Positions 18,213 to 61,382 of a stretch of 64,000 nucleotides of DNA are shown here, one piece after another. The position numbers and the translations under genes are program-made. The notes beneath the pieces are model-generated. The model was not told where the DNA came from. It was given only the letters and a program-made list of their open reading frames with translations, and searched no databases. Origin of the DNA: Euglena gracilis (taxonomy: Eukaryota); NCBI GenBank assembly GCA_039621445.1, contig CP154954.1, positions 17,390,589 through 17,454,588 of the forward strand, written 5' to 3'. How positions within the stretch are numbered: position 1 is the stretch's first letter; each line of letters opens with the position of its first letter.

Positions 18213-18820
18213 GAGCTCTGGGCACTGGACCTGTTCTCCGGGACAGGCAGTGTCCGCCGGGCCCTGGAGGCACTGGGTTACCATGTCGTGAGTGTCGACT
18301 GGGACTCCCGGTGGCACCCCGATGTGGTGGCGGACATCCGGCGATGGGAGTACTGGCAGCAGTATTCCCCGGGTGACTTCGATCTGGTGGCAGCATCCCC
18401 ACCATGCACCGAGTACTCATCGGCAATGACGACAAGGCCGAGGCGGTTGAGGGAAGCAGATGCGGTGGTGAGGAAGACAAGGGAGATCATCCAGTACCTC
18501 GCTCCGGCGAAGTGGTGGATCGAGAATCCCCGGCACGGGCTGCTCCGCAGGAGGCGAGTAGTCCGAGACCTGGCCTTCGTGGACCTCGACTACTGCATGT
18601 TTGAAGACTTCGGCTACCGGAAGCCCACCCGGTTCTGGTTACCGAAGGAGATGGCCAGGGATCTCACCAACGTGTTGTGCGATGGCCGATGCAAAAGCTC
18701 GGTGCAAGGGGACAAAGGAAGACGGCGCCACCGGTTCCAGCTGGGAGGCAGGTGCCCCCACAGAGTGTCACGAGAGGAGGCGTACAGAATCCCAAGCGGC
18801 GTGGTGGAGTACCTGTGCCA
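18213..18820 (+). CDS. C5-cytosine DNA methyltransferase domain within the Gypsy polyprotein
   Basis: Motif I LDLFSGTGS (~18225-18251), SVD, ADI, motif IV ASPPCTEYS (catalytic Cys 18405-18407), motif VI WWIENP (ENP 18522-18530), DYCMF, motif VIII-like YRKPTRFW and a C-terminal AYRIP. In frame with the protease ALIDTGA. Confidence 0.9.
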
Positions 18821-18949
18821 AGGCACAGGACCACAAGCAGCGAAGCAGAAGGAGCAGTGTCCAACAGCCAAAGTGCAAGAGGTGACCATCAAGCCGTGGC
18901 ACGTAAAGCCGGCCCGCTTTCGAGTGGGCAGGATGCAAAGGAGAGGAGG

Positions 18950-19320
18950 CGGATGCCAGCTGCTGCTGGAAGTGACCGTGGAAGCCAATGGTGAGTGCTA
19001 CCAAGCAAAAGCGCTCATCGACACCGGAGCCCAGACGTCTCTCTGCCGGAGGGACCTGCTGCCAGAAGCCTGCTTCACGCAGTCCAGCAAGCCGCTGCTG
19101 CTCAAGACAGTGAGTGGCGAAGAGCTCAACGGAGGGAAGAACGAGGCCACCCTCACACTCTCCTTCGAGGCAAGGAGTGAACCGAAGAGGGCGTGCCAGT
19201 GGGCAGCCAGTGGAGCAGCACCGTCACCGCACACGACGGGGACATCGGCTGCGACCTCATCCTCGGATATCCGTGGTTGAAGGTCAATCGCCTCGACGTG
19301 CAGCCGTGGAGAGATGCACT
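18950..19320 (+). CDS. Retropepsin-type aspartic protease
   Basis: KALIDTGAQTSL (DTG ~19020-19028) and C-terminal DLILGYPWL, separated by a one-base frameshift near 19180-19200. Confidence 0.85.
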
Positions 19321-21947: not shown

Positions 21948-24885
21948 CTGCTGCGATGGTCGTACCTGCAAACCCTGGCGGCCAAGGGGAAGAAGTTCCG
22001 GCTGGAGGGCCCCCCCGACACCGTCCTCCACGACCTCCGCCGGGCGCTGAACCAGTACACCGAGTGGGCAGCGCGCAGCAACCCCACCGACGCCACCTAC
22101 CTCCGGAAGCTGGGCGAGTGGGCCGACGCCGTGGAGGCCCGCTGCACCACCAACTGGCGGTGCTCGGCCGTCAGAGAAGAGCTGGTCCCCACCGGCTTCC
22201 CGGGCCTGTCACAGCAAATGCGGGAGGCCCACCAGGTCCTCGTCTTCCTCCACGACGACCGGGCCCCCCACGGCCTGATGTTCGTTTGCAAGCGCTGGTA
22301 CCAGAAGCAGATGGCCACCTACCTGGCGGACTCCACCGTGTTCGAGGACGTGACCGACACCTGGAGGGAGGTGGTTGCCCGGCTGTCGGAGGTCAACCAG
22401 CGGTTGCACTTCCCCACTGGCGCCGGTGTCGTCTACAACTACGGCATCTGGAAGCCAGCGAAGAAGAAGTTCCGGTTCATTGCCGGGACCCGCAAGAACC
22501 CCGATCCCGACCCCGGGTCCCCCGCCCCCGCCTCTGAGTCCGCCCCCGCCTCCGCCCCCACCGCCTCCAAGGAGCCCCCCCGGCAGCCCCTCTATGCCCT
22601 GAGCAAGGCTTTGGTGTCGCTCCTGAAGCACATCGAGGTCGCCCTCCGGGAAAAGGACGAGCGGCGGCAACAGCAGGAGGGCATCAAGGCGTTCTGGGGA
22701 ATCGACAGCGTGGAGTCTTTCGTCCGGATGGTCCGAACCCACTCCAAGGACATCCTGGCGGGGGGCTTGGAGACGGCGGACTTCACGACGATGTACACGG
22801 CCTTCACCTTCGACGCCATCATCGAGCGGACCATGGAGTCGGCCAAGGAGGCCTGGGCCTTCGTGCGGGAGACCAAGACCCCCGCTGGGGTGGACCCCGC
22901 CACCCCACCGTCCCTCACCACCGGCGGCTGGTCGTGGGATGGCCTCGGCTACTCCTTGGATGACCTGAAGGAGCTGGTGGCCGTGGCGGTGCAGAACAAC
23001 TACACCTGCAATGGCGGAAGGGTCCGGCGCCAGATCCGGGGCATGCCCATGGGCCTCCCCCCGGCCCCGCAGCTGGCCAACCTGGCCTGCTACCCCGTGG
23101 AGCGCGACCACATGTACGCCCTCCCTCCCCAGCTCCGGTCCTCCGCCGTGTCCCGATACATCGACGACATCGTCCACCCCACCACCATGCCCCTCCCCTC
23201 GGCAGCCGAGTACGGCATGGAGTACAAGACCACCGGCTCCGGCGAGTCCGTGGTGTGCCTGGGCGTCCGAGTGTACATCCAATGCCATTCCAACGGGGAC
23301 CGCGTGGTGCACACCACCGTCCACGACCGGGAGGAGGAGTACCCCCACCACATTGTTCGCTACCCCCTAGCCACCACCACCGCCCCCACCGAGCAGCTGG
23401 GCGGGGTCATCATGGGCCGCCTGGAGTTCGCCCGGATGGCCTGCAGCCACATGGGGGATTTCAAGCAGTCAGTGGCCAACGTCTTCCGCAACGCCATCTG
23501 GCGGGGGTACTCTCGCCGCCTGGTGCAATCGGTGTGGAGCCGCTTCCTCTTCCAGCGCTGGCATGCCGCCGACATCCGCGTCCGTGAGCTCCGCACCTGG
23601 TTTTCCAAGGTGTGGAAGTGGCTCCACTCCAGCCCCCACCGCGCTCCCCCAGCCCCATGGGCCACCGCCCTCCCCCTCGATGAGGCCCATGCCCCCTCCC
23701 AGGCCGACTTTCTCTCCGTCTTCGGCCACCCCGCACCCCTCCCCGGGGGCATCGACGACTTGCTGGCCGAGATGACGCCGCCCCCTTCCCCCTCCGCCTC
23801 CCATCCCTCCGACGTGGACGTGATGATCATCGACCGGGAGGCCCACGTGCGCCACGGCAAGCAGCAGGCCCCGAGAGGAGCGTCCCGATCCGTCCACTGG
23901 CCAGGGCTCAGAGAGGGGGACGCCCCAGAGGTGAGGTGCGCCCAATCCGTGAGCAGCAAGGGCAAGGACCCGGGGGTGATGCCGCCAAGGATCCCGCCCC
24001 CGGCGAGCCCGGGCGAGCCTCTACCAATCAGTCAAGAGGAGGGGGACGCCCCAAACAGCCGCAGCACCAGGCCGGCCCACACCGGGGCGGGGTTTACGCC
24101 GGGCAGTGAACCGGGGGTGACGCCGCCAAGGATCCCGCCCCCGGGGAGCCCGGGCGGGCCTGAGGACAGCGAGGGGGACGCCCCGAGCCACGGACTGGCC
24201 CACACCGTGACGGGGTTTACGTCGGGCTGTGAACTGGGGGTGACGCCGCCAAGGATCTCAGCCCCAGGGAGCCCGGGCGGGTCCGTGATCGTGCTGCCAG
24301 GACCGGCCTAAGAGCACGCGCGGGACGCCCCAAGCGACAGGCTGGCCCACACCGGAGCGGGGTTTACGCTGGGCGGTGAACCGGGGGTGACGCCGCCAAG
24401 GATCTCGCCCCCGGGGAGCCCGGGCGGGCCTGAGAGTTGCCAGCCCACGGCCATGGAGACAGAGACGGACGCCCTCGAGGGGGTTGCAGCGCAGCCAAGC
24501 ACCGCCTCCCAATCCCCCATCGCCCCAACGGCTCCCACAGCCTCCCAAGGCCCCCCTCTCTCCAACCCGGACTCCGCCTCCCCAACCCCATGCCTCCCCC
24601 CACCCACCCGTGAGGTCCTCCAGGAGCGGGTCGTCATCGTCGAGAGGCAGGTCCCCGTTCCCGTGCGGGAGCCTGTCTTCGTGGATCGGGTCATCGAGCG
24701 GGTCGTCCCTGTCCCCGTGCAAGTCCCCGTGGAGGTCCGGGTCCCCATGCCCGTCCCCGTCCCCGTGGAGGTCCGGGTTCCCGTCCCCATCTACCTCCCT
24801 CCCTCCGCGCCACAAGCCCCCTCCATCGTGCAGAATGTGCATCTCAACGCACTCACCATCGGCCCCTCCTCCTCCTCGTCTTCCT
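21948..24885 (+). mobile_element. Penelope-like element copy C, 5'-truncated (RT plus part of the C-terminal extension)
   Basis: TADFTTMYT, QIRGMPMGLPPAPQLANL and RYIDD (23157-23168). Near-identical in inverse to ~26078-29928. TAA at 24309-24311 where copies B and D read TCA. Confidence 0.9.
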
Positions 24886-26639
24886 GCCGCAGAGGGGGGA
24901 GGCCTCGCACGGGTTGCACGCCCACCTCCAGCCGGTGCGGCCCGAACTGGAGGGCCGGAGATACCAGCTCCGGCAGGCCGGGGGTGGCACACCTGCGATG
25001 TCACCGCCTCCGCGTCCGTGCTGGTCGTCGTCTCCTGCTGCCGCCGCTGCCGCCGCCGTCCGCCGCGACGATGGCCTTGCAGGGGCTCCCACGGGTTGGG
25101 ATGAGAGGGGATCGGAGGGGGGCCGGCCCCTGCCTCCCTCTCTCTCTCTCTCTCCTCTCCGCGATGGTCTCAATGCGGTTGGGGGCTCCGACTCCCCCCG
25201 AAAGTGGCGTTGAGCTTGGCATTTTTCCTGCAGCTTCTTCAGCTCCTTGCTGAGGGCGGAGATGCTGTCCGCCATCCTTTTGATCTCCTTGTGCAGTGCC
25301 GCCCCTCGCCGGCTCTGCACCGGTGTCCATGCGACACCTTCGTCTCTTCGGTCTCTTTCTTCTCCTCGGGGTGGGTTGCCCTGCGCACTCCCAGGGCGAG
25401 AGGGTCTCGAAAATCTCATGGCTGCTGAAGAAAAAGAATCCCCAGGGCGGCGCCCACGGGCCGCTTCCCTGTTGGGTCGCCAAGGGGCTTGGGGCCGGGG
25501 CAAATCCCGCTTCGCTTGCTCCCCTGCGGACGGGGTTGCGGGGCACAGGCACCACGCTGCCTGCCACCCGCCCGGACTTGGCTCGGTCTCGCTCCGGGGA
25601 CGTGGCTCCCGGAGGGTTGGTGGCCCTGGTGGGGGCCGTGGGGGTGGCGCCTTGGACCGGGGTGATCGGCCTCCCCGATCCTGGCACCTTCATGCCAGTC
25701 GTGCGTCTGGCGCTCGAGGTCCGCGGGGCGCTCGACGTTCTGGGCTGCTGCGGCTTCTTGCCATTCTTGGATGATGCTCCGCCGCTGGGGGCCGCACGAG
25801 GCCCAGACCTGGTTCTGCAGGTCCGGGTCCCATGATTCGTACATGGCTTGTCCTCGTCCTGCTTCTCGTGGATCCTTCAGCACCGCCTTCCACTCCTCGT
25901 ACTTGGCTCGCCACTCGGCAGGCCACTCACTCAATGAAGTGAACTTCCTCTTCTTCGTGGGGCCTTGGGAAGAGGTGTCGTCGTCGGTGGTGTCGCTGGG
26001 GGGCGGGGGGGGAGCAGTGAGGAGGGGGCGGTTGGGGGCCTCGATGGCGGGAATGGGGAGACCTTGGAGGAGGGCCAAGGAAGACGAGGAGGAGGAGGGG
26101 CCGATGGTGAGTGCGTTGAGATGCACATTCTGCACGATGGAGGGGGCTTGTGGCGCGGAGGGAGGGAGGTAGATGGGGACGGGAACCCGGACCTCCACGG
26201 GGACGGGGACGGGCATGGGGACCCGGACCTCCACGGGGACTTGCACGGGGACAGGGACGACCCGCTCGATGACCCGATCCACGAAGACAGGCTCCCGCAC
26301 GGGAACGGGGACCTGCCTCTCGACGATGACGACCCGCTCCTGGAGGACCTCACGGGTGGGTGGGGGGAGGCATGGGGTTGGGGAGGCGGAGTCCGGATTG
26401 GAGAGAGGGGGGCCTTGGGAGGCTGTGGGAGCCGTTGGGGCGATGGGGGATTGGGAGGCGGTGCTTGGCTGCGCTGCAACCCCCTCGAGGGCGTCCGTCT
26501 CTGTCTCCATGGCCGTGGGCTGGCAACTCTCAGGCCCGCCCGGGCTCCCCGGGGGCGAGATCCTTGGCGGCGTCACCCCCGGTTCACGCCCAGCGTAAAC
26601 CCCGCTCGGTGTGGGCCAGCCTGTCGCTTGGGGGCGTCC

Positions 26640-27590
26640 CCCCTCCATCTCCTTCCACTCACCTCTCATCCCCCTCCGCCCCGCTCCCGCGGGTGGAGGG
26701 GATCCTCTCCCTCGTCCCCCATACGCACCCTCTCCGCAGCTCCCTTCACGCCCGCCTGCATCCCCGTTCCCTGACACCCCCTCGTAACCCCCCCCCCCGC
26801 TCTTCTCTCCTGCTTTCCCTCACCTCCTTCACTCCCACTCCCTCCATCTTTGTGCCCCCCCCTCTCCCGTGCCTCCCCTTTCCTCCTCACGCCCTGCCTC
26901 TCCTTCCATCACCTCTTCCCCCCTCCCCTGGCTCCCCCCCCCTCACTCCTCCTCCCCCGCCTCCTTGGCCAGTTCCGCTTCCTCCTTTCTCCTTGGCCCT
27001 CATCCAATTCTTTCGCCCCGGCTCCGATGCTCGACCCTTCCCCTGCCTGACTGGGCTTCCTTGCACCCTCACCTTCTCCCCCTCCCCATCCTCCCAACTT
27101 CTTCACCACCCACCCCCTCCACTCCCCCTTTCTCTTCACGTGTGCCTCCCTTTCCACTCCTCTAGTTGCTCGCCCCCACCTCGCCCACCATGCCTCATGT
27201 CACCCTTTTCTACCTCCGGCGGGTCCTCCCAGCCCCACCCATCCCATCTGTACTTCCTCTGCTCCGTTCTCACTTTGTCTCCCTTTCCACATACGCCATT
27301 CTTTCATCGCTTCCCCCACTCCCTCTTAGCGCTCCCCACCCCCCCCCGACCCGCCTCAGACCTTTCCCCCTCGTCCCCATCCTTCCACAGCACCCGCACT
27401 CTGCCATCCCCGTACCTCCACCTTTCCTCCCCCGCTCTGGTCCTTGCCCGCCTCACCCCCCCGCGTCTCGCTGGCTCCTCCCTCTCACTACAACCCCACC
27501 CCCGCCCCATCCTTGCTCCGCCCCTCTCCCCCACGTCCCCTCCTTCCCCCGTCTTGTGCCCTCTCCTCCCCCTCTATTTTCCTGGCAGCA
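26640..27590. other. Non-periodic pyrimidine-rich block, probable read/consensus artefact
   Basis: Replaces a ~50-nt segment that is intact in copies B (~34095-34145) and D (~60065-60115). No repeat unit, TIR or TSD is visible. Confidence 0.65.
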
Positions 27591-30500
27591 GGCACGGCCG
27601 CCGGGCTCCCTGGGGCTGAGATCCTTGGCGGGTCACCCCCAGTTCACAGCCCGACGTAAACCCCGTCACGGTGTGGGCCAGTCCGTGGCTCGGGGCGTCC
27701 CCCTCGCTGTCCTCAGGCCCGCCCGGGCTCCCCGGGGGCGGGATCCTTGGCGGCGTCACCCCCGGTTCACTGCCCGGCGTAAACCCCGCCCCGGTGTGGG
27801 CCGGCCTGGTGCTGCGGCTGTTTGGGGCGTCCCCCTCCTCTTGACTGATTGGTAGAGGCTCGCCCGGGCTCGCCGGGGGCGGGATCCTTGGCGGCATCAC
27901 CCCCGGGTCCTTGCCCTTGCTGCTCACGGATTGGGCGCACCTCACCTCTGGGGCGTCCCCCTCTCTGAGCCCTGGCCAGTGGACGGATCGGGACGCTCCT
28001 CTCGGGGCCTGCTGCTTGCCGTGGCGCACGTGGGCCTCCCGGTCGATGATCATCACGTCCACGTCGGAGGGATGGGAGGCGGAGGGGGAAGGGGGCGGCG
28101 TCATCTCGGCCAGCAAGTCGTCGATGCCCCCGGGGAGGGGTGCGGGGGGGCCGAAGACGGAGAGAAGGTCGGCCTGGGGGGGGGCATGGGCCTCAGCGGG
28201 GGGGGGGGCGGTGGCCCATGGGGCTGGGGGAGCGCGGTGGGGGCTGGAGTGGAGCCACTTCCACACCTTGGAAAACCAGGTGCGGAGCTCACGGACGCGG
28301 ATGTCGGTGGCATGCCAGCGCTGGAAGAGGAAGCGGCTCCACACCGATTGCACCAGGCGGCGAGAGTACCCCCGCCAGATGGCGTTGCGGAAGACGTTGG
28401 CCACTGACTGCTTGAAATCCCCCATGTGGCTGCAGGCCATCCGGGCGAACTCCAGGCGGCCCATGATGACCCCGCCCAGCTGCTCGGTGGGGGCGGTGGT
28501 GGTGGCTAGGGGGTAGCGAACAATGTGGTGGGGGTACTCCTCCTCCCGGTCGTGGACGGTGGTGTGCACCACGCGGTCCCCGTTGGAATGGCATTGGATG
28601 TACACTCGGACGCCCAGGCACACCACGGACTCGCCGGAGCCGGTGGTCTTGTACTCCATGCCGTACTCGGCTGCCGAGGGGAGGGGCATGGTGGTGGGGT
28701 GGACGATGTCGTCGATGTATCGGGACACGGCGGAGGACCGGAGCTGGGGAGGGAGGGCGTACATGTGGTCGCGCTCCACGGGGTAGCAGGCCAGGTTGGC
28801 CAGCTGCGGGGCCGGGGGGAGGCCCATGGGCATGCCCCGGATCTGGCGCCGGACCCTTCCGCCATTGCAGGTGTAGTTGTTCTGCACCGCCACGGCCACC
28901 AGCTCCTTCAGGTCATCCAAGGAGTAGCCGAGGCCATCCCACGACCAGCCGCCGGTGGTGAGGGACGGTGGGGTGGCGGGGTCCACCCCAGCGGGGGTCT
29001 TGGTCTCCCGCACGAAGGCCCAGGCCTCCTTGGCCGACTCCATGGTCCGCTCGATGATGGCGTCGAAGGTGAAGGCCGTGTACATCGTCGTGAAGTCCGC
29101 CGTCTCCAAGCCCCCCGCCAGGATGTCCTTGGAGTGGGTTCGGACCATCCGGACGAAAGACTCCACGCTGTCGATTCCCCAGAACGCCTTGATGCCCTCC
29201 TGCTGTTGCCGCCGCTCGTCCTTTTCCCGGAGGGCGACCTCGATGTGCTTCAGGAGCGACACCAAAGCCTTGCTCAGGGCATAGAGGGGCTGCCGGGGGG
29301 GCTCCTTGGAGGCGGTGGGGGCGGAGGCGGGGGCGGACTCAGAGGCGGGGGCGGGGGACCCGGGGTCGGGATCGGGGTTCTTGCGGGTCCCGGCAATGAA
29401 CCGGAACTTCTTCTTCGCTGGCTTCCAGATGCCGTAGTTGTAGACGACACCGGCGCCAGTGGGGAAGTGCAACCGCTGGTTGACCTCCGACAGCCGGGCA
29501 ACCACCTCCCTCCAGGTGTCGGTCACGTCCTCGAACACGGTGGAGTCCGCCAGGTAGGTGGCCATCTGCTTCTGGTACCACCGCTTGCAGACGAACATCA
29601 GGCCATGGGGGGCCCGGTCGTCGTGGAGGAAGACGAGGACCTGGTGGGCCTCCCGCATTTGCTGTGAAAGGCCGGGGAAGCCGGCGGGCACCAGCTCTTC
29701 TCTGACGGCCGAGCACCGCCAGTTGGTGGTGCAGCGGGCCTCCACGGCATCGGCCCACTCGCCCAGCTTCCGGAGGTAGGTGGCGTCGGTGGGGTTGCTG
29801 CGCGCCGCCCACTCGGTGTACTGGTTCAGCGCCCGGCGGAGGTCGTGGAGGACGGTGTCGGGGGGGCCCTCCAGCCGGAACTTCTTGCCCTTGGCCGCCA
29901 GGGTTTGCAGGTACGACCACCGCAGCAGCTCGGACTCGTTGCTCACCACGTGGCCCTCGTGGAAGGCCGCCGGCTCCTTCCGGCGGAGGGCTGTGTGGCA
30001 CTGGCAGCCCTCGAGGTCGTCGGCCTGCGCGGCGGCCACGTCCAGCTCGCTGGAGACCTGGGCGTAGTTGCACAGCCACGCCTGCCACTGCGGGGCGAAC
30101 TTGTCGCAGACCATGATGGCGGCGGCGACGTCCGGGTTGGGGTGGAGCTTGTAGACGGCCTCCTCCCGCAACACCTTGCGCAGCTCCAGGTGGCGGGCGC
30201 CGTTGTTGGAGTAGGAGAACTTCAGGAACTGCCGCTCGGGGGCCTCCTTCCTCTTCGCCTTGATGAGCTCCACCAGCTTGCACTCCAGGGAGAGGTGGCC
30301 GGAGCGCCGCTCGTCGTCCGGGACGTGCTGTTGCAGCCAGTCCAGGGTGGAACACAACCGCGCCTTGCCCCAGGAGCGTGCCTCCGCCAGGGCGCTGGAG
30401 TCCCCTTGGTGGCAGCGGCGGAGCCACTTGGCTAGGTCAGGGCTGGGCGGAGGGTCGCCTTGGGATGTGGGGGCGGGGTCGGGGCTGGGGAGGGTGTGCT

Positions 30501-30635
30501 GGCGGCGGAGCACCTTCCGGCTGACGGGGAAGCCGGGGTAGGCGGCGTTGAAGCCGTGGGGCCACATGGAGTTGAGGAGGCCCACCCACTTGCGCTCGCG
30601 GGCGAGGGCATCCCGGGGGGGGGGGGGGGGGGGGT

Positions 30636-30673
<38 letters not shown>

Positions 30674-31304
30674 CGGGGGGGGGGGGGGGGTGGGGGGGGG
30701 GGGGGGGCGCGGCCCGGGGGAAGCTGTCTGGTGAGGGGAGCCTCTCGATGGGGATCATGAGGAAGGAGAAGGGGGTGGGGTCGTTGGCCAGGGCGTCGTG
30801 CAGGGCGTCGGCGCAGCGCCCCCGGCTCCACCAGTGCTCCTTGGTCCGCTTGTAGACCTTCCGCGTGGTCTGCCCAACGTAGAGCCGCCCCGTGGGGAAG
30901 TGGAAGAGGGCGTAAATCCAGCCAGGGGCGTCCCACAGGGCGGCCACGTTGCCCCAATCCACGGCGGCATTGGCTGGGTCGGAAGAGCGGAGCTGCAGGA
31001 CCCTGCGCATGGTCTTGTTGCGCCAGGATTGCCGCCCCCAGCTGCGCTGCATCCACTGAAGGTGGTCCTGCCAGCTCCACTGCCCCTCGTTGCGGCGGTG
31101 GCGGGACGGCTGGGGGTCATGCTTGTCGTAGGGCTCGGCGATGGGGAGGGCGCGGTCATCCCGGGAGTGGGATGGCCTGGGGGGCCTTCGGGAAGAGGGT
31201 TGCCCGGGAGGGCGCTCGGGGGGAGGCCTGGGGGTGCGAGAAACCTCACCAGGCAATTCTGAGTGGACCCCGGGGAAAGCTCCCCGAGCCGCAGGGACTG
31301 CGGA

Positions 31305-31680
31305 AATCTCTCTTCTTGATTGGTATGGACGGGGTATTCTGGGTGCGGGTGGGGGTGGGGATGGGAGGGGATGGGGAGGGAGGTGGGGGGGCGCCGCAGA
31401 GGGGGGAGGCCTCGCACGGGTTGCACGCCCACCTCCAGCCGGTGCGGCCCGAACTGGAGGGCCGGAGATACCAGCTCCGGCAGGCGCCTCGCAGGGAGGG
31501 CATACATGGGATGCCGCTCCGATCGGAGGGGGGCCGGCTCGTCGTCTGCCGCCGCCGCCGTCCGCCGCGACGATGGCCTCGCAGGGGATCCCACGGGTTG
31601 GGATGAGAGGGGATCGGAGGGGGGCCGGCCCTTGCCTCCCTCTCTCTCTCTCTCTCTCCCCTCCGCGGTGGTCTCCTCCG
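31305..31680 (-). repeat. pLTR-like direct repeat of the Penelope-like family
   Basis: The same block recurs at ~32050-32625 (with a ~95-nt subunit triplicated), ~58030-58400, ~24886-25165 (partial) and ~37767-38145 (diverged). It occurs both before the ORF start and at element 3' ends. Confidence 0.85.
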
Positions 31681-31818
31681 CGGTCTCTCTCTCTCTCTTC
31701 TGAATCGGTGTTGCTGGGGGAACTCCTTGGGGGGAACTCCTTGCCGACCCGAGAGTGTGTGCTTGTGGGGGAAGTGTGTTGTCAGTCGGTGTGGGCGCGT
31801 GTGTTGTCAGTCTGTGTT

Positions 31819-31891
31819 GCGGTTTCGCCCCAGGCTGGCAGGTGGGGCATCGTCAGGGGTGACGACCCTGCCAACCCTCGTCCCCGACCGC
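31819..31891 (-). ncRNA. Type III hammerhead ribozyme
   Basis: Minus strand reads GCGG-UC/GGG-GACGA-gggUUGGCAggg-UCGUC-a-CCC-CUGACGA-U-GCCCCA-CCUGCCAGCC-UGGGGC-GAAA-CCGC. The core is complete, stems I-III pair, and GUC cleavage is predicted between 31886 and 31885. Confidence 0.92.
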
Positions 31892-32035
31892 GCTTGTCTG
31901 TGTGGTGCAGACCGTTACAAACGAGCTCTGCGTCCCCCTCCGGGGGGGGGGGGGGGGGGGGGGGGGCTGAAAAAAACCGGCCCCAAAAACAAGGCAGCGC
32001 GGGACGGAAAAATGGTCCACTACCTACGGGGCACC

Positions 32036-35000
32036 CTCTCTCTCTCTCTCTCTCTCTTCTTGATTGGTATGGACGGGGGATTCTGGGTGCGGGTGGGGGT
32101 GGGGATGGGAGGGGGTGGGGGGGTGCCGCAGAGGGGGGAGGCCTCGCACGGGTTGCACGCCCACCTCCAGCCGGTGCGGCCCGAACTGGAGGGCCGGAGA
32201 TACCAGCTCCGGGGTGAGGGAGGTGGGGGGGTGCCGCAGAGGGGGGAGGCCTCGCACGGGTTGCACGCCCACCTCCAGCCGGTGCGGCCCGAACTGGAGG
32301 GCCGGAGAGCTCCGCTCCGGGTGAGGGAGGTGGGGGGGTGCCGCAGAGGGGGGAGGCCTCGCACGGGTTGCACGCCCACCTCCAGCCGGTGCGGCCCGAA
32401 CTGGAGGGCCGGAGATACCAGCTCCGGCAGGCCGGGGGTGGCACACCTGCGATGTCGCCGCCTCCGCGTCCGTGCTGGTCGTCGTCTCCTGCTGCCGCCG
32501 CTGCCGCCGCCGTCCGCCGCGACGATGGCCTCGCAGGGGATCCCACGGGTTGGGATGAGAGGGGATCGGAGGGGGGCCGGCCCTTGCCTCCCTCTCTCTC
32601 TCTCTCTCTCCCCTCCGCGGTGGTCTCGATGTGGTTGGGGGCTCCGACTCCCCCCGACAGTGGCGTTGAGCTTGACATTTTTCCTGCAGCTTCTTCAGCT
32701 CCGCGCTCAGGGCGGAGATGGTGTCCGCCATTCTCTTGATCTCCTTGTGCAGGGCAGCCCCTCGCCTGCTCTGCACCGGCGTCCATACGTCGCCTTCTTC
32801 TCTTCTGCCTCTTGCTTCATCACGGGGTTGGTTGCCCTGCGCACTCCCAGGGCGAGAGGGTCTTGTAGATCTCATGGCGCTTGAACTTTGTGATTCCCCA
32901 GGGCGGTGCCCACGGGTCGATTCCCTGTTGGGTCGCCAAGGGGCTTGGGGCCGGGGCAAATCCCGCTTCGCTTGCTCCCCTGCGGACGGGGTTGGCGGGG
33001 CACAGGCACCACGCTGCCTGCCACCCGCCCGGACTTGGCTCGGTCTCGCTCCGGGGACGTGGCTCCCGGAGGGTTGGTGGCCCTGGTGGGGGCCGTGGGG
33101 GTGGCGCCTTGGACCGGGGTGGTCGGCCTCCCCGATCCTGGCACCTTCATGCCAGTCGTGCGTCTGGCGCTCGAGGTCCGCGGGGCGCTCGACGTTCTGG
33201 GCTGCTGCGGCTTCTTGCCATTCTTGGATGATGCTCCGCCGCTGGGGGCCGCACGAGGCCCAGACCTGGTTCTGCAGGTCCGGGTCCCATGATTCGTACA
33301 TGGCTTGTCCTCGTCCTGCTTGTCGTGGGTCCTTCAGCACCGCCTTCCACTCCTCGTACTTGGCTCGCCACTCGGCAGGCCACTCACTCAACGAAGTGAA
33401 CTTCCTCTTCTTCGTGGGGCCTTGGGAAGAGGTGGGGGCGGCGGTGGTGTCGCGGGGTGGGGGGGGGGGGGTGGGGTGGAGGAGGCGGTTGTGGGCCTCG
33501 ATGGCGGGAATGGGGAGACCTTGGAGGAGGGCCAAGGAAGACGAGGAGGAGGAGGGGCCGATGGTGAGTGCGTTGAGATGCACATTCTGCACGATGGAGG
33601 GGGCTTGTGGCGCGGAGGGAGGGAGGTAGATGGGGATGGGGAACCCGGACCTCCACGGGGACGGGGACGGGCATGGGGACCCGGACCTCCACGGGGACTT
33701 GCACGGGGACCGGGACGACCCGCTCGATGACCCGATCCACGAAGACAGGCTCCCGCACGGGAACGGGGACCTGCCTCTCGACGATGACGACCCGCTCCTG
33801 GAGGACCTCACGGGTGGGTGGGGGGAGGCATGGGGTTGGGGAGGCGGAGTCCGGGTTGGAGAGAGGGGGGCCTTGGGAGGCTGTGGGAGCCGTTGGGGCG
33901 ATGGGGGATTGGGAGGCGGTGCTTGGCTGCGCTGCAACCCCCTCGAGGGCGTCCGTCTCTGTCTCCATGGCCGTGGGCTGGCAACTCTCAGGCCCGCCCG
34001 GGCTCCCCGGGGGCGAGATCCTTGGCGGCGTCACCCCCGGTTCACCGCCCAGCGTAAACCCCGCTCCGGTGTGGGCCAGCCTGTCGCTTGGGGCGTCCCC
34101 GCTCGGCTCTGAGGCCGGTCCTGGCAGCACGATCACGGACCCGCCCGGGCTCCCTGGGGCTGAGATCCTTGGCGGCGTCACCCCCAGTTCACAGCCCGAC
34201 GTAAACCCCGTCACGGTGTGGGCCAGTCCGTGGCTCGGGGCGTCCCCCTCGCTGTCCTCAGGCCCGCCCGGGCTCCCCGGGGGCGGGATCCTTGGCGGCG
34301 TCACCCCCGGTTCACTGCCCGGCGTAAACCCCGCCCCGGTGTGGGCCGGCCTGGTGCTGCGGCTGTTTGGGGCGTCCCCCTCCTCTTGACTGATTGGTAG
34401 AGGCTCGCCCGGGCTCGCCGGGGGCGGGATCCTTGGCGGCATCACCCCCGGGTCCTTGCCCTTGCTGCTCACGGATTGGGCGCACCTCACCTCTGGGGCG
34501 TCCCCCTCTCTGAGCCCTGGCCAGTGGACGGATCGGGACGCTCCTCTCGGGGCCTGCTGCTTGCCGTGGCGCACGTGGGCCTCCCGGTCGATGATCATCA
34601 CGTCCACGTCGGAGGGCTGGGAGGCGGAGGGGGAAGGGGGCGGCGTCATCTCGGCCCGCTCGTCGTCGCTGCCCCCGGTGACGCGTCCGGGGTGGCCGAA
34701 GCCGGAGAGAAAGTCGGCCTGGGGGGGGGCAAGGGCCTCAGGGAGGGGGAGGGCGTGGGCCCGTGGGGTTGGGGGAGCGCGGTGGGGGCTGGAGTGGAGC
34801 CACTTCCACACCTTGGAAAACCAGGTGCGGAGCTCACGGACGCGGATGTCGGTGGCATGCCAGCGCTGGAAGAGGAAGCGGCTCCACACCGATTGCACCA
34901 GGCGGCGAGAGTACCCCCGCCAGATGGCGTTGCGGAAGACGTTGGCCACTGACTGCTTGAAATCCCCCATGTGGCTGCAGGCCATCCGGGCGAACTCCAG

Positions 35001-37766
35001 GCGGCCCATGATGACCCCGCCCAGCTGCTCGGTGGGGGCGGTGGAGGTGGTGAGGGTTTAGCCAACAGTTTGGTGGGTGTACGCGTCCTCCCTGTCGTGT
35101 ACGGTGGTGTGCACCACGCGGTCCCCGTTGGAATGGCATTGGATGTACACTCGGACGCCCAGGCACACCACGGACTCGCCGGAGCCGGTGGTCTTGTACT
35201 CCATGCCGTACTCGGCTGCCGAGGGGAGGGGCATGGTGGTGGGGTGGACGATGTCGTCGATGTATCGGGACACGGCGGAGGACCGGAGCTGGGGAGGGAG
35301 GGCGTACATGTGGTCGCGCTCCACGGGGTAGCAGGCCAGGTTGGCCAGCTGCGGGGCCGGGGGGAGGCCCATGGGCATGCCCCGGATCTGGCGCCGGACC
35401 CTTCCGCCATTGCAGGTGTAGTTGTTCTGCACCGCCACGGCCACCAGCTCCTTCAGGTCATCCAAGGAGTAGCCGAGGCCATCCCACGACCAGCCGCCGG
35501 TGGTGAGGGACGGTGGGTGGCGGGGTCCACCCCAGCGGGGGTCTTGGTCTCCCGCACGAAGGCCCAGGCCTCCTTGGCCGACTCCATGGTCCGCTCGATG
35601 ATGGCGTCGAAGGTGAAGGCCGTGTACATCGTCGTGAAGTCCGCCGTCTCCAAGCCCCCCGCCAGGATGTCCTTGGAGTGGGTTCGGACCATCCGGACGA
35701 AAGACTCCACGCTGTCGATTCCCCAGAACGCCTTGATGCCCTCCTGCTGTTGCCGCCGCTCGTCCTTTTCCCGGAGGGCGACCTCGATGTGCTTCAGGAG
35801 CGACACCAAAGCCTTGCTCAGGGCATAGAGGGGCTGCCGGGGGGGCTCCTTGGAGGCGGTGGGGGCGGAGGCGGGGGCGGACTCAGAGGCGGGGGCGGGG
35901 GACCCGGGGTCGGGGTCGGGGTTCTTGCGGGTCCCGGCAATGAACCGGAACTTCTTCTTCGCTGGCTTCCAGATGCCGTAGTTGTAGACGACACCGGCGC
36001 CAGTGGGGAAGTGCAACCGCTGGTTGACCTCCGACAGCCGGGCAACCACCTCCCTCCAGGTGTCGGTCACGTCCTCGAACACGGTGGAGTCCGCCAGGTA
36101 GGTGGCCATCTGCTTCTGGTACCAGCGCTTGCAAACGAACATCAGGCCGTGGGGGGCCCGGTCGTCGTGGAGGAAGACGAGGACCTGGTGGGCCTCCCGC
36201 ATTTGCTGTGACAGGCCCGGGAAGCCGGTGGGGACCAGCTCTTCTCTGACGGCCGAGCACCGCCAGTTGGTGGTGCAGCGGGCCTCCACGGCGTCGGCCC
36301 ACTCGCCCAGCTTCCGGAGGTAGGTGGCGTCGGTGGGGTTGCTGCGCGCTGCCCACTCGGTGTACTGGTTCAGCGCCCGGCGGAGGTCGTGGAGGACGGT
36401 GTCGGGGGGGCCCTCCAGCCGGAACTTCTTCCGCAGGTACGACCACCGCAGCAGCTCTGACTCGTTGCTCACCACGTGGCCCTCGTGGAAGGCTGCCGGC
36501 TCCTTCCGGCGGAGGGCTGTGTGGCACTGGCAGCCCTCGAGGTCGTCGGCCTGCGCGGCGGCCACGTCCAGCTCGCTGGAGACCTGGGCGTAGTTGCACA
36601 GCCACGCCTGCCATTGCGGGGCGAACTTGTCGCATACCATGATGGCTGCGGCGACGTCCGGGTTGGGGTGGAGCTTGTAGACGGCCTCTTCCCGCAACAC
36701 CTTGCGCAGCTCCAGATGGCGGGCGCCGTTGTTGGAGTAGGAGAACTTCAGGAACTGCCGCTCGGGGGCCTCCTTCCTCTTCGCCTTGATCAGCTCCACC
36801 AGCTTGCACTCCAGCGAGAGGTGGCCGGAGCGCCGCTCGTCGTCCGGGACGTGCTGCTGCAGCCAGTCCAGGGTGGAACACAGCCGCGCCTTGCCCCAGG
36901 AGCGTGCCTCCGCCAGGGCGCTGGAGTCCCCTTGGTGGCAGCGACGGAGCCACTTGGTTAGGTCGGGGCTGGGCGGGGGGTCGCCTTGGGATGTGGGGGC
37001 GGGGTCGGGGCTGGGGAGGGTGTGCTGGCGGCGGAGCACCTTCCGGCTGACGGGGAAGCCGGGGTAGGCGGCGTTGAAGCCATGGGGCCACATGGAGTTG
37101 AGGAGGCCCACCCACTTGCGCTCGCGGGCGAGGGCATCCCGGCGGGCGAGGGCGCGGCGGTCAGCCCGGGGGAAGCTGTCGGGTGAGGGGAGCCTCTCGA
37201 TGGGGATCATGAGGAAGGAGAAGGGGGTGGGGTCGTTGGCCAGGGCGTCGTGCAGGGCGTCGGCGCAGCGCCCCCGGCTCCACCAGTGCTCCTTGGCCCG
37301 CTTGTAAACCTTCCGGGTGGTCTGCCCAACGTACAGTCGCCCCGTGGGGAAGTGGAAGAGGGCGTAAATCCAGCCGGGGGCATCCCACAGGGCGGCCACG
37401 TCGCCCCAGTCCACGGCGGCGTTGGCTGAGTCGGTGGAGCGGAGCTGCAGGACCCTGCGCATGGTCTTGTTGCGCCAGGATCGCCGCCCCCAGCTGCGTT
37501 GCATCCACTGCAGGTGGTCCTGCCAGCTCCACTGCCCCTCGTTGCGGCGGTGGCGGGACGGCTGGGGGTCGTGCTTGTCGTAGGGCTCGGCGATGGGGAG
37601 GGCACGGTCATCACGGGAGTGGGACGGCCTGGGGGGCCTTCGGGAAGAGGGTTGCCCGGGAGGGCGCTCGGGGGGAGGCCTGGGGGTGCGAGAAACCTCG
37701 CCAGGCAATTCACGGTGGACCCGGGGTGGACCCCGGGGAAAGCCCCTCGAGCCGCACGGACTGCGA
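32036..37766 (-). mobile_element. Penelope-like element copy B, full-length layout with frameshifts
   Basis: ORF pieces 35453-37708, 35058-35465, 33384-35009 and 32024-33937. GIY-YIG WIYALFHFPTGRLYVGQTTRKVYKRAKEH...ERKW at ~37090-37375 and YIDD at 35253-35264. Ends in the pLTR plus (GA)n. Confidence 0.92.
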
Positions 37767-40700
37767 AATCTCTCTCTTGATTGTTATGGACGGGGATTCT
37801 GGGTGTGGTTGTGAGTGGGGATGGGTAGGGGGATGGTTAGGAGGTGGGGGGGTGCCGCAGAGGGGGGAGGCCTCGCACGGGTTGCAACGCCCACCTCCAT
37901 AGCCCGGTGGGCGGCCCTAACTGGACGGATACCAGTACCAGGCTCCGGCAGCCGGGGGTGGCACACCGCTGCGACCCCCCTTGGGGGCCCGCTGCCTCCC
38001 CCACGTCCGTGCCGGTGTCGTCTCCGCTGCGCCGCTGCCGCCGCCGTCCGCCGCTTGACGATGGCTCTCGCAGGGATCCCACGGGTTGGGATGAGAGGGG
38101 GTCGGAGGGGGGCTGGCCCTTGCCTCTCTCTCTCTCTCTCTCTTTTACCACGTGGGTTTCCCTTGCCTTCCTTCGCCTTGCCCCCTCCCCCCATCCCTTG
38201 GCCTCCTGGTCCCCCCCGGTGGTGCCCGGTCTGTCCTGGCGCTCTGGGCTGCCCTTTCCCTTGCCCCCCTCCCCCCCTTCCCTTGGCCCCTCTCCGGTCC
38301 TCCGGGGGGCTGCCCGTCTGTCTAGCGCGCTGGGCTGCCCCTTCCCCCTCCCCCCTCCCTTGCCTGCTGGTGGGTGTGTGGCGGTCCCCGTGCGTGCGTG
38401 CGTGCTGGGGGGGCGGCGCTCCCCCCATGGGCTCCGCACGCCTTTCACGCCACCCCCGGACCCCGCGCCAGGGCCCGGGGGCCCGGGGATGCCACCGCCG
38501 GCGAGCCCCCCACCCCCCAGGGCCCCGTCGGCGTGGTACACCTCGTTCTGGTACCCGCATGACGGGCACGGCTGGCAGGTTCCGTGCCCGGCACGCGGGT
38601 TTCGGGGATCTCCGTGGCCGTGTCGATCTTGGGCTCCGTCGCCTCGTCCTCGGCCTCGTCCTCCCCGTCCTCCGCGTCCTCGTTGCTCTGGTGGCGGCTG
38701 CCTGCTCGCTTGGCGGCTTGGGGGTTCAAACCCAATGGATCTCTTCCGCCCCCGGCGTTGTTGCTGTGGCTGCAGGGGGGCCCAGGGGTTGTCGTCCCTT
38801 AGGTCCGGTCGTTGCTGCTGCTGCTGCGGGGGCGGATTCTGCCGCCATTGGTCGAGCTCTTGCTGCATTTCTTGCAGCGCCCGTTGGAGCCCTTGGAGGC
38901 GCTTTTGGAGGCGTTTTCGGCCGGTGCTTTGTGCTGTTTGCCAGCCCTCTCCTTGGGGTTGGCCCTGCCGGCTTCCTTGTGGGGTGACGTTTCCTTTGCC
39001 ACCCTTGCCTCCTTTCCTGGGCTGTGTCTGCCCTTTTCCTGTTTGTTGTCCTCCTCGCTGGGCCCCCCCTTTTGGGTTGGGCTGTTGGTACCCTCTTTGG
39101 GGTGGTCCGGGGTTCTTTGCTTCCCCGATCCGTGCCCCTTTCTTCCAGTCGTGCTGGTCTTGGCTTCTGCTTCTGGGGCACGGTTCTTCTGCTCCTTCGT
39201 CCCGCTTGACGGCGTGTCGGGCCACGCCCTGCCAGTGATTGGCAGGTACCCCTGGAGATCCGCCCCAGGTCGGTTGCGGGTTCTTAGGCTGGCGCCCCGC
39301 CTGCCACCCGGGGCAGAGGTCCTCTGCGCCGGGCAGGCCGTCATTGCCTGGCATGCCTGTGATTTTTGTGCGTCATGGTGCTGGTGGGTTCTTTTTGTTC
39401 GTCGTCCCGATTGACGGCGTGCCGGGACACGCCCTGCCGGTGATCGGCAGGTACCCCTGGAGAGCCGCCCCAGGCCGGTCGCGGGTGATTCTTTGGGCTC
39501 CCCGCTTGCCCCTCGGGGGGGTCCGCTGCCGACCCTTCCTCTTCTGGGCCTGGCTGCTTCGCCTCCCCGATGCGCTGGCCTTCCTGCCAGTCGTGGCTGG
39601 TGGGTTCTCCACCTTCGTCTTCCGCTCCGGTGTGGGACCTCCGCCTCTCTTCTCGCGTGCTTCTGGCTTGGCCTTCTGCTTGGGTTGGTGGGCCTTCGTT
39701 CTCCCTCGCCTTCCATCGGCGGATCTCGTCCCTCCGCTTGTCGGCGACGGCTGCCCACACTTGGTCTTGGAGGCTTTGGTCCCACCCCTGCCACATCTCG
39801 TGGCGGTCGCTTGCTTTGGGCGTGGCCTTGAAGCGCTCGTACTGCTCCCGCCACTCTGCCGGCCACTCGGCCAAGCGCGTGTACAGCCTCTTCTTGCGTT
39901 GGCTTGGCTGGGTTGCCTGCGAGGCGTCGTCCCCTTCGGTGGGCTGTGGTGTGGCCGCCTCCTCCACCACCACCGACACTGGGCGCTTGTTGCCCAGGAG
40001 TCGGTCTGTGGCCATGGGGTCGCTTCTTGCCGGTGCCTCCTCGGTGGCTGTGGTGCTTTGTGCTTCCTGCGTGGGGGTGGCGCTCGGTGGCGGTGTGGCG
40101 CTTGTTGTTGGTGTTGGTAGGGCCGGCGTGCTGCTTGCCGCTGCTGCTGCTGCGGGCACGGGGCTGGTGCTGCCGGGTGGTGCTGCTGGCGTGGCGGTGG
40201 TGCTGGCCCCTTCCGTTGCGGGTGGTGGTAGGTTGCTGCTTGGCGGTGGTGCTGCTCCTGCCGGGGTGGTGCCTGCTGCGGGCGATGTGGGTGTGGCGGC
40301 GGTGGGTGCGTCTTCGATCGCCAGCGTGGCGCGGTGGGTGAGGTGGCGGCTCTCTTGCTGCTGCTGTTGCTGCTGCCAGATCCATCGCACCATTTCGATG
40401 AGCAGTGCCCGTTGGGGGTCCACTGCTCCTTCCGCCGGGTAGGGCTGTGGTCGCCCCATCTCCCGCTGCCACCGGGCCCTTGTCGGCCCGGTGGTGCTGC
40501 TGACCGCTTGGATCAGTCGTTGGACTGGCATGGGCAGCTGTGCGCTCGCCCCCCGGAGCAGCGCGGTCACTGCGCCGGTGTCCATCCCCGGCAGCCGCAG
40601 CGGGCGTTCCACTGGCACCAGGCGCTCCACGTGCACCGGCACCGGGTACGGTGTGGGCACTGCGCGCTCCACGACCACCGGCACGGGTACGTGGTACGGC

Positions 40701-57145: not shown

Positions 57146-58009
57146 AAGAGCTCTTTTGTGTTCAGCAGGAAATTATTCAAGATTTCGTCGCAAAGCACCG
57201 AAAGTCAAAAATGACGTTTTAAAGGGCTTTTTTTTGTGTATTTTGGCCTCAAAAATGAAGAAAAAGGTTGAAAAAATTCATAATTTGTGCTTTTGGGTTC
57301 TGCCTGTTCTTGGGTGCAAGCCTGGAATCCGGGTTGGCCCAGGGTTTTTTTTTTTAGTCTTGGACCCCCTCCCCCGGGGGGAGGGGGGGTAGGGTGGTCC
57401 CTCGGACCCCCCTCCCCCCCTGTGGGGGGGGGTAGGGTGGGGGCGAGTGGGTATATCTTTTTTCGGCGCCGAAGGCGCCGAAAATTTTTTAAAAGGTGCT
57501 ATTTTTAGCATTTTGTGCTAATTTCGGGCAAAAGTGGGTGGGTCCCCCCGGGACACCCCCTCCCCCGGGGGGCCCAACCCCAGGGGGGTGGGTGGATGGG
57601 TGGGTGCTGACCCCCCCCGGTCTTAAAAAAACACCTGGGAAGGCCCGCAGGCCCGAAGGACCCAGGAGTCACCCTGACTTCTCAAGCAAAGCCTTCTCCA
57701 GAAAAGAAACAGCCCACCAGGGTATTTCTCAAGGACCCCCATGGGCGCATCAGTCCATTGGCCGGCAGAAAAAGGTGCAGCAAACCCCCCAGGGCGGGTC
57801 CTGCGCCTGATCCCCACACAAATGCACAAATGCCCAAATTTCACTCATTTTTTCATAACACCCCATTTGGAACATTATCAAAGGAGGTGGGAAAATTACA
57901 CCAGCTTTGCAGTTCGTTGATTAGGGATGATTGGAAGGTCAAATTTTGCGCTGGATCAGTTTTAAACGGCAGCCCGAAACTACTGGGCCCCCCCCAGGGG
58001 ACGGGGTAT

Positions 58010-61000: not shown

Positions 61001-61382
61001 TGGGGGCGGTGGTGGTGGCTAGGGGGTAGCGAACAATGTGGTGGGGGTACTCCTCCTCCCGGTCGTGGACGGTGGTGTGCACCACGCGGTCCCCGTTGGA
61101 ATGGCATTGGATGTACACTCGGACGCCCAGGCACACCACGGACTCGCCGGAGCCGGTGGTCTTGTACTCCATGCCGTACTCGGCTGCCGAGGGGAGGGGC
61201 ATGGTGGTGGGGTGGACGATGTCGTCGATGTATCGGGACACGGCGGAGGACCGGAGCTGGGGAGGGAGGGCGTACATGTGGTCGCGCTCCACGGGGTAGC
61301 AGGCCAGGTTGGCCAGCTGCGGGGCCGGGGGGAGGCCCATGGGCATGCCCCGGATCTGGCGCCGGACCCTTCCGCCATTGCA
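58010..61382 (-). mobile_element. Penelope-like element copy D, 5'-truncated within RT
   Basis: Begins at CNGGRVRRQIRGMPMG, has YIDD at 61221-61232 and the full C-terminal extension, and ends in the pLTR plus (GA)n at ~58010-58035. Confidence 0.9.

Follow-up and report, generated by a model that had tools for sequence, protein, structure and literature searches.

Here we analyse a 64,000-nucleotide stretch of Euglena gracilis DNA (contig CP154954.1, positions 17,390,589 to 17,454,588), called the window below, and in particular a hammerhead motif at positions 31819 to 31891 of its minus strand. Going by its letters, the motif is probably a hammerhead ribozyme as to kind, of type III, and we consider the catalysis predicted for it fairly likely. 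It lies between two tandem copies, here called A and B, of a Penelope-like element (PLE), to which a first-pass annotation of the window had assigned it. We find instead that the stretch around the motif belongs to a repeat family that is separate from the PLE and much more abundant. The explanation towards which we lean is a pseudoknot-type, PLE-flavoured type III hammerhead on a separate, abundant, short (GA)n-tailed repeat, which is likely non-autonomous and plausibly moved by a Chlamys-like PLE. PLEs and hammerheads travel together in most lineages, and to our knowledge nobody knows what benefit the ribozyme brings to the PLE.

Anatomy of the hammerhead motif

Read on the minus strand, the motif has the following parts (nt, nucleotides; bp, base pairs).

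31819..31891, minus strand: type III hammerhead motif, read from the sequence as stem III, GUC triplet, stem I hairpin, CUGACGA plus U, stem II hairpin, GAAA and stem III
31891-31888, minus strand: stem III 5' strand, GCGG
31887, minus strand: U16.1
31886, minus strand: C17
31885..31886, minus strand: predicted self-cleavage site, 3' of C31886 by hammerhead numbering; the 3' product would begin with G31885
31885-31878, minus strand: stem I 5' strand, GGGGACGA
31877-31866, minus strand: loop 1, GGGUUGGCAGGG, 12 nt
31865-31857, minus strand: stem I 3' strand, UCGUC-A-CCC, with A31860 bulged
31856-31850, minus strand: core CUGACGA
31849, minus strand: extra U
31848-31843 and 31832-31827, minus strand: stem II, GCCCCA / UGGGGC, 6 bp
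31842-31833, minus strand: loop 2, CCUGCCAGCC, 10 nt
31826-31823, minus strand: GAAA
31822-31819, minus strand: stem III 3' strand, CCGC

Stems I, II and III have 8 bp (with the A bulge), 6 bp and 5 bp, respectively, where stem III includes the A15.1-U16.1 pair, and stem I is 2 bp longer than stem II (8 vs 6). The conserved hammerhead core is complete, with C3 U4 G5 A6 N7 G8 A9, G12 A13 A14, the A15.1-U16.1 pair and an H17 that is not G. The nucleotide inserted after A9 is U31849, and the G10.1-C11.1 pair is formed by G31848 and C31827. With loops on stems I and II and an open stem III, the topology is that of type III. Positions 31876-31867 of loop 1 are complementary to all ten positions of loop 2, with 9 Watson-Crick pairs and 1 G-U pair. 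Rereading of the minus strand reproduces exactly the core, the stem lengths, the bulge, the extra U and the loop pairing of the first-pass annotation. Its identification of a type III hammerhead with long loop-loop complementarity is likewise borne out, as sequence and topology agree and the Rfam family RF00008 aligns in that topology.

The expectation by chance was estimated with a descriptor consisting of CUGANGA, 0-1 extra nt, GAAA and U-H, with minimum lengths of 3 bp for stem II, 3 bp plus the A-U pair for stem III, and 4 bp for stem I. This descriptor is deliberately loose, and still it matches the window exactly once on both strands, at 31819-31891. Shuffling was dinucleotide-preserving and done in blocks of 1 kilobase (kb) to retain local composition; any relaxed match was found in 5 of the 300 shuffled windows, that is, about 0.017 per 64-kb window. 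Stems of 6/4/4 bp were reached by one match across the 300 shuffles, and the 8/6/5 bp of the motif by none (0/300). A contiguous loop complementarity over 10 positions arises by chance in 0.3% of cases when the loop compositions are kept, and in 0.02% at background composition.

An abundant repeat between Penelope-like elements

We now turn to the sequence in which the motif is embedded. It was examined through contigs of public sequencing runs and by self-comparison of the window, and the following features were delimited.

31684..31930, minus strand: minimum extent of the high-copy hammerhead repeat, at least 247 bp, from contig matches in sequencing runs
31697-31684, minus strand: variable (GA)n tail, the 3' end of the repeat
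31931..32035, minus strand: 5' part of a 350-bp unique segment, with a 25-nt C run (31966-31942), from self-comparison of the window

The stretch is present in 20 of the 24 listed public runs (15 studies). Four runs were compared on 31490-32090, within which 31931-32090 and 31637-31657 are repeat-masked, so that coverage there carries no information. X1 below stands for organism A and X13 for organism B, and the run type is guessed to be DNA. The number of matching contigs is 3443 in X1 (1082 at 99% identity or above, 1255 at 95-99%, 832 at 90-95% and 274 below 90%) and 1151 in X13. The summed depth, which is not a copy number, is in X1 approximately flat at 0.68-0.94 million over 31700-31909, compared to 0.0045-0.18 million over the PLE piece at 31532-31636, and in X13 it is 39,000-85,000 over the repeat and 60-3,250 over the PLE piece. 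Compared per bin in these two runs, the summed depth of the repeat exceeds that of the adjacent PLE terminal piece several-fold to about 200-fold.

The contig matches end at 31692, 31690 and 31684 (33, 26 and 39 X1 contigs, respectively), inside or at the end of (GA)n, and the sequence beyond (GA)n differs among the X1 contigs, with a consensus agreement of 0.36-0.58. The higher depth and the divergent flanks mean that the hammerhead stretch is a repeat family separate from the PLE and much more abundant. The first-pass annotation had made the hammerhead part of this PLE unless the segment turned up independently of it; the stretch 31692-31930 is found with diverse flanks, at a depth far above that of the PLE, and the assignment has to be given up. 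Its observation that the segment occurs once and is absent from the other pseudo-long terminal repeat (pLTR) copies holds within the window: 350 bp at 31676-32025 are unique there except for homopolymer matches. The part at 31931-32035 may belong to the repeat, to the PLE 'tail' or to trapped target DNA. On the plus strand at 31963-31992, a small hairpin of G and C, with an A run after it, gives a match to the Rfam family eiav_FSE (19.3 bits, gathering score 40, E 0.021 in a search with 301 nt), which we take for chance.

The window holds one copy of the repeat. In some X1 and X13 contigs, 5'-truncated copies are joined behind the (GA)n of another copy (31819->31684, 31811->31690, 31770->31688), and such head-to-tail joints of truncated copies are few. 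ARAGORN finds no tRNA-derived head of a short interspersed nuclear element (SINE) in 31300-32400. The repeat has two stop-free frames on the plus strand; a protein search with each of them, aimed at copies called as spurious open reading frames (ORFs), gives 0 matches. Pattern scans of viral and genome contig collections also give 0 matches. Two metagenome matches to a pattern of core plus stem II, with an identical stretch (L001 693-724 and L002 354-385), were rejected as chance, as they lie just after a stop codon and have neither stem I nor stem III; by its letters, this stretch resembles a hairpin of the terminator type.

Two pairs of short direct repeats lie 3' of the ribozyme, at 31813-31775 and 31742-31716 on the minus strand, with GACTGACAACACAC and AAGGAGTTCCCCC each occurring twice. 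They could be protein-binding sites or the result of slippage.

It is useful at this point to describe the PLE copies around the repeat, which make up the GC-rich block at about 22-41 kb on the minus strand. Each PLE unit opens and closes with a terminal piece, called T, that starts and finishes in (GA)n. The copies and their parts are as follows (RT, reverse transcriptase; UTR, untranslated region; aa, amino acids).

24885..31675, minus strand: PLE copy A, with upstream T (31675-31307), RT ORF (31116-27574, 1180 aa), and 3' UTR plus truncated T (26645-24885)
32026..38143, minus strand: PLE copy B, with upstream T (38143-37769), GIY-YIG/RT coding region with broken frames, 3' UTR, and T with 107-bp tandem repeats, from self-BLAST
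32036..32057, minus strand: (GA)11 tail ending the T of copy B, directly 5' of the unique segment
21948..24885, plus strand: inverted, 5'-truncated PLE copy abutting copy A, from self-BLAST
58001..61382, minus strand: PLE copy C, with T, 3' UTR and the 3' part of the ORF, without hammerhead, cut off at 61382 by another repeat
32109-32427, 27588-27966, 33986-34511 and 24046-24434: PLE tandem repeats

The location between tandem PLE copies, as described in the first-pass annotation, is confirmed, with the (GA)11 tail of copy B on one side and the upstream T of copy A (31675) on the other. The RT ORF of copy A has a weak RVT_1 match (E 6e-4) and 26 relatives in environmental assemblies, which are up to 79% identical. 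Its Atlas neighbours are rotifer and streptophyte clusters, some with RVT_1; as a lead, this is consistent with a PLE-type RT and says nothing more. Upstream of the RT, GIY-YIG matches are found in copies A (E 0.0078) and B (E 0.0068), both weak and below the Pfam cut-off, and a C-x-C motif (C-Q-C) is visible in translation P0001. In copy A, the start of GIY-YIG is in another frame than the RT, across the G/C runs at 30615-30707. Four plus-strand G runs of 16-38 nt lie there; on the coding strand they are runs of C, that is, of proline codons. The frame break may be a frameshift, a homopolymer assembly slip or an intron. The inverted copy matches copies A and B closely (21948-24302 to 29928-27580 with 98.9%, and 21988-24885 to 36432-33535 with 98.6%).

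By their architecture, the flanking elements appear to be PLEs of the Chlamys type, that is, with an N-terminal endonuclease. For such elements, Craig et al. (PMC8557442) describe partial tandems, an inverted 5'-truncated copy as the usual arrangement, and an insertion bias towards microsatellites; the sections of that paper used here also state that Chlamys elements are without canonical hammerheads apart from two subclades. The local copies match this description in their architecture, in their (GA)n ends and in having no hammerhead core with stem II. Neither the exact ribozyme words nor five RT peptide words occur in the supplement text of PMC8557442, as far as that text was available. The terminal-piece copies at 38143-37769, 32627-32026, 25171-24885 and 58401-58001 contain no hammerhead by self-comparison and scan, and a scan of the window for type I hammerheads finds none. 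Four other candidates with core plus stem II lie outside the PLE copies (including 47614 and 54769 on the plus strand and 56174 on the minus strand). Past their (GA)n tails, copies B and C are followed by sequences that align only weakly with each other.

Two further observations concern these copies. The PLE tandem repeats of the terminal piece have 107-bp units, those in the 3' end of the ORF have units of 123-147 bp, and their number varies by copy; 'tandem repeats at 3' end' are recorded for several Chlamys families in the available part of PMC8557442. In a rearrangement at 26645-27580, about 0.9 kb separate the ORF end of copy A from the 3' UTR, where copy B has 15 bp, and a nearby part matches 24322-24885 in inverted orientation.

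Folding, variation and competing explanations

A number of results speak against an active ribozyme on a PLE-related repeat, and they are best considered together. With pseudoknots left out, the best fold is a long hairpin instead of the hammerhead, at -36.0 kcal/mol, compared to -26.5 kcal/mol for the three hammerhead stems. In the pseudoknot-free ensemble, the hammerhead stems I and II have a probability of approximately zero. The score of RF00008 is far below the gathering score (18.8 bits vs 48.5), and no Rfam hammerhead is found in the whole window at gathering or in 301 nt with E up to 10. One contig of X17, an RNA library, carries G31872->A in loop 1 but no change in loop 2, and a central kissing pair, G31872-C31837, is thereby broken. 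Two X17 contigs span the predicted cut, one of them with a 1-nt deletion that is aligned at U4 (31855) and the other with the core unchanged over the aligned part. Finally, a likeness of the 3' end of the repeat to the PLE terminal piece had to be rejected, as it is not significant beyond (GA)n, with 1223 of 2000 shuffles as good.

The folding result can be looked at more closely. In the competing hairpin, the pairing between loops 1 and 2 is extended by UCGUCA-UGACGA, and the catalytic box is buried. This nested optimum is unremarkable, with a z-score of -1.21 and 27 of 200 shuffles folding at least as well. The duplex of loop 1 and loop 2 has an energy of -19.9 kcal/mol, and the hammerhead with its pseudoknot is therefore comparable in stability to the hairpin, the two being mutually exclusive. 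The hammerhead has the advantage in the order of synthesis, since its stem I hairpin is finished before the core emerges. It is important to note that all ten loop pairs are not expected to form in cis, because loop 2 would be without a linker back to its stem across a full helical turn. The 10-bp kissing helix of the first-pass annotation is accordingly upheld as a complementarity over 10 positions, while the full helix is sterically doubtful, as judged from A-form geometry and not from a computation. A partial loop helix of about 5-8 of the 10 pairs appears plausible.

As to Rfam, the Infernal search proposed in the first-pass annotation returns Hammerhead_3 (RF00008) far under gathering. 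It is nevertheless the top family on 87 nt, with the full model 1-54 aligned and E 0.046, in a search that ran with laxer filters than the longer ones. The shortfall in score is due to inserts of 23 nt and 13 nt where the model has 7, plus the extra U. The motif is thus not a member by the rule of Rfam, and it is a hammerhead by its anatomy as read from the letters.

The variants among copies give a mixed picture. No variant with at least 10% of the depth is found inside 31819-31891 in X1 or X13, and the consensus hammerhead of the family is therefore that of the window copy. Just outside the motif, at 31892, nearly all copies carry another letter. The count of variants at or above 10% is 0 in the hammerhead region and two in about 170 nt of flank, numbers that are too small to show better conservation. 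In the X17 contig with the loop 1 change, G31883->A is accompanied by C31859-A31860->U, such that the G-C pair with its bulge becomes an A-U pair; the change is two-sided and stem I is kept. In a group of 11 X1 contigs, C31880->U gives a G-U pair, the bulge is changed in the same way, and the cleavage triplet reads GUU, not GUC. These stem I variants also cost the competing hairpin a pair. The other variants retain loop 1 positions 31876-31867, and some contigs are without the core altogether. Altogether, the stem changes in the variant snippets are one two-sided and two G-U-compatible ones in stem I, with none seen in stems II and III. The evidence from variants is thin: it speaks mildly for stem I and mildly against a full kissing helix, and says nothing about catalysis.

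The libraries X16 and X17 are metatranscriptomes of soil and leaf litter, and they contain near-identical pieces of the repeat, one of 191 nt with a single difference, which means that the organism or a close relative lives there. The repeat may be transcribed; carry-over of DNA is also possible. The end of one X16 contig at 31882, 3 nt from the predicted 5' end, was considered as a sign of cleavage and discarded, as it is one contig from one study with a depth of 4, and X17 contigs cross the site.

The mechanism that we propose is the following. During transcription, the stem I hairpin would form first, followed by the core and stem II. The loops would then pair as a pseudoknot, with stems I and II side by side, and the active fold would be locked. 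In this state the RNA is predicted to cut itself after C31886. The competing hairpin, which uses the same loop pairing and sequesters CUGACGA, would keep a share of the molecules uncut. Uncut or religated molecules would be the templates for new copies, because the genomic copies retain at least 45 nt upstream of the cut. We infer both the catalysis and the role of the pseudoknot. The repeat is probably a retrozyme- or SINE-like retroelement, non-autonomous and either derived from PLEs or a parasite of them, and it would move by retrotransposition with PLE help. Its tie to PLEs is drawn from the extra nucleotide between A9 and G10.1, from the (GA)n microsatellite end that it shares with the local PLE, and from its head-to-tail seat at the (GA)n tail of copy B. 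The copy in the window may have been inserted into this tail, or the PLE reverse transcriptase may have switched templates there.

Other explanations have to be weighed against this one. The hammerhead could be built into the pLTR or 5' region of this PLE and be kept in the full-length copy only, where it would cut read-through tandem transcripts and set the 5' end of copy A. The orientation is indeed that of the PLE, the location is about 210 nt upstream of the terminal piece of copy A and directly after the (GA)n of copy B, and a B-to-A read-through transcript would be cut here if the ribozyme is active; moreover, PLEs generally have hammerheads in their pLTRs (PMC7761336, PMC4209133, both as far as available). 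We nevertheless regard this as very improbable, considering that the four other terminal-piece copies in the window lack the hammerhead, that the stretch is several-fold to about 200-fold deeper than the PLE piece and has many different flanks, and that Chlamys-type PLEs are reported to be without canonical hammerheads (PMC8557442, sections used here). The statement in the first-pass annotation that the ribozyme defines the 5' end of the copy A transcript is reduced to a local side effect at most, since the repeat is separate from the PLE. A better chance, yet still a small one, is given to the repeat being the 3' end of a different autonomous PLE family that bears a hammerhead (for example PLE-X-like) and is present mostly as short 5'-truncated copies. 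Canonical PLE hammerheads are located near the 3' end according to the accessible part of PMC8557442, stem II is letter for letter that of the Chara PLE-X1 hammerhead, and 5'-truncated copies do occur behind the (GA)n of another copy in some X1 and X13 contigs. However, 5' truncation would make the depth fall toward the 5' side, and it is flat over 31700-31909 (31931-32090 being masked); in addition, no second PLE-related RT family is seen in the window.

A solo long terminal repeat (LTR) of a plant-type LTR retrozyme, a kind of element with LTRs of about 300-400 bp, a type III hammerhead and dependence on Ty3/gypsy enzymes, would account for the topology. From TG (32032) to CA (31701) there are 332 bp, which is near the 330-bp LTRs of Jatropha retrozymes, and solo LTRs are common (PMC4918200, in the part available). 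A gypsy- or DIRS-like ORF with RT and RNase H is also present in the window. On the other hand, the 4 nt flanking TG...CA differ, such that there is no 4-bp target duplication, and no second LTR, primer-binding site (PBS) or polypurine tract (PPT) is found nearby. Furthermore, the similarity between copies runs 9-17 nt past CA into the variable (GA)n, a 3' end of the non-LTR or PLE kind, and the extra nucleotide after A9 is a mark of PLE hammerheads. This origin has little to recommend it in our judgement. The motif might, finally, be a non-catalytic look-alike, that is, an imperfect long hairpin with the core letters by chance, or a decayed ribozyme that is carried passively. The nested optimum that buries CUGACGA, the sub-threshold Rfam score and the RNA-library contigs that cross the cut site fit such a case, and the hammerhead region is not shown to be better conserved than the flank (0 vs two variants). 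With about 0.017 relaxed matches per 64-kb window, the scanning of very many windows also meets chance matches. Against this, the observed stem lengths are reached in 0 of the 300 shuffles, and the loop complementarity adds an independent improbability. The stem lengths also fit the published 2-bp rule for pseudoknot type III hammerheads, the extra U and G10.1-C11.1 match PLE hammerheads, and the stem I variants keep the hammerhead pairing and weaken the hairpin. We conclude that a look-alike is unlikely.

The RT and RNase H ORF mentioned above belongs to another retrotransposon at 16671-22537 on the plus strand, with matches to RVT_1, RT_RNaseH and RT_RNaseH_2 (E about 1e-22). The preceding ORF has a weak match to a C-5 DNA methylase (E 0.001). 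A methylase ORF ahead of an RT/RNase H ORF is an arrangement that we take to be that of DIRS-like elements. The 3' end of this retrotransposon is overrun by the inverted PLE copy from 21948, and 36 N are located at 19798-19833. A G run of about 100 nt at 49688-49786 is the longest homopolymer seen. It adjoins a repeat at 49959-52170 that recurs with 98% identity at 61381-63577, where it interrupts PLE copy C at 61382.

Relation to known ribozymes and significance

About 40% of hammerheads likely use a loop pseudoknot (Perreault et al. 2011, PMC3088659), and a difference of 2 bp between stem I and stem II frequently goes with a pseudoknot in type III (Figure S4 legend of the same paper). Like the pseudoknot hammerheads in the portion of that paper drawn on here, the motif in the window has a canonical core, stems I and II that would be tied distally by Watson-Crick pairs, type III topology and the 2-bp difference. 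The loop pairing is where it departs from them. Distal complementarity of at least 4 bp is the mark of the pseudoknot type, and the known cases have 4-6 bp, whereas here the letters allow 10 contiguous positions that take up the whole of loop 2 and leave no linker. A further difference is that the loop pairing here supports a competing hairpin as well.

In PLE hammerheads, a nucleotide is inserted between positions 9 and 10.1, and G10.1-C11.1 is conserved (Cervera & de la Pena 2014, PMC4209133, in part). The present motif resembles them in both the extra core nucleotide and the G10.1-C11.1 pair, and it is located in a PLE-rich locus. Many of the entries of File S2 of PMC8557442 to which we had access (Chara, Selaginella Chlamys/PLE-X) have the extra core nucleotide. 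The Chara PLE-X1 hammerhead of that file agrees with the window motif in all six letters of stem II and also has an extra core nucleotide; as we read the table, its loop 2 shows complementarity to the strand that follows directly 3' of stem I. PLE hammerheads are, however, described in the available part of PMC7761336 as minimal motifs of type I in which stem I is open and helix III is minimal, and they are said to act as dimers. The window motif is of type III: a 12-nt loop closes stem I, the open stem III has 5 bp, and the motif is placed outside the terminal repeat of the local PLE. A further paper on PLEs, Chlamys and hammerheads (PMC13159263) concerns, in the part at hand, Coprina elements of a fungus and has no bearing on this locus.

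In lifestyle, the closest relatives are the non-LTR retrozymes of animals. In metazoans these are short, non-coding and abundant hammerhead repeats of 150-400 bp, which are seen as non-autonomous derivatives or parasites of PLEs (PMC7229834; bioRxiv 10.64898/2026.07.22.740005; both in part), and they are proposed to derive from PLE pLTRs (bioRxiv 10.64898/2026.07.22.740005). The repeat in the window is also short, non-coding and hammerhead-bearing, with many copies (3443 contigs in X1 and 1151 in X13). The non-LTR retrozymes as described in these sources are of type I, while the present repeat is of type III. They form tandem arrays and circular RNAs; of the present repeat, the window has one copy and the runs show a few head-to-tail joints of truncated copies. 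Its partner would be a Chlamys-like PLE that is itself without hammerhead, unlike the case of the non-LTR retrozymes.

Plant LTR retrozymes have a type III hammerhead, LTRs of about 330 bp, 4-bp duplications, a PBS and a PPT (PMC4918200, in the part available). The similarity to them lies in the type III hammerhead within a non-coding stretch of about 330 bp, and isolated copies are common there. In contrast to them, the window has no 4-bp duplication, PBS, PPT or paired LTR at this location, and it has a (GA)n 3' end and the PLE-type extra nucleotide.

Pseudoknot hammerheads and retrozymes are already known, and the motif in the window is a variant of these kinds. We have also considered whether the repeat represents a new class of retrozyme, comprising thousands of (GA)n-tailed copies of at least about 250 bp with a long-pseudoknot type III hammerhead that would parasitise Chlamys-type PLEs lacking a ribozyme. 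This is possible but we put it forward tentatively, as it is less probable than the explanation towards which we lean. In such a class, as in viroid-like RNAs, the loop complementarity would switch the RNA between a fold that cuts and a hairpin that is protected.

Should the ribozyme prove inactive, what is left is an ordinary repeat. If the favoured explanation is true, retrozyme-like elements with type III hammerheads would be extended beyond the LTR retrozymes of flowering plants, and a natural hammerhead would be at hand in which pseudoknot and inhibitory hairpin compete. PLEs with an N-terminal endonuclease (Naiad, Chlamys) thrive without hammerhead, and it has been suggested that hammerheads 'simply parasitize PLEs' (both PMC8557442, the latter in its Discussion, as far as accessible). 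A repeat that is moved by the PLE would mean that ribozyme and reverse transcriptase are physically separate, which speaks to this suggestion, and whether the ribozyme serves or exploits the PLE would then become directly askable.

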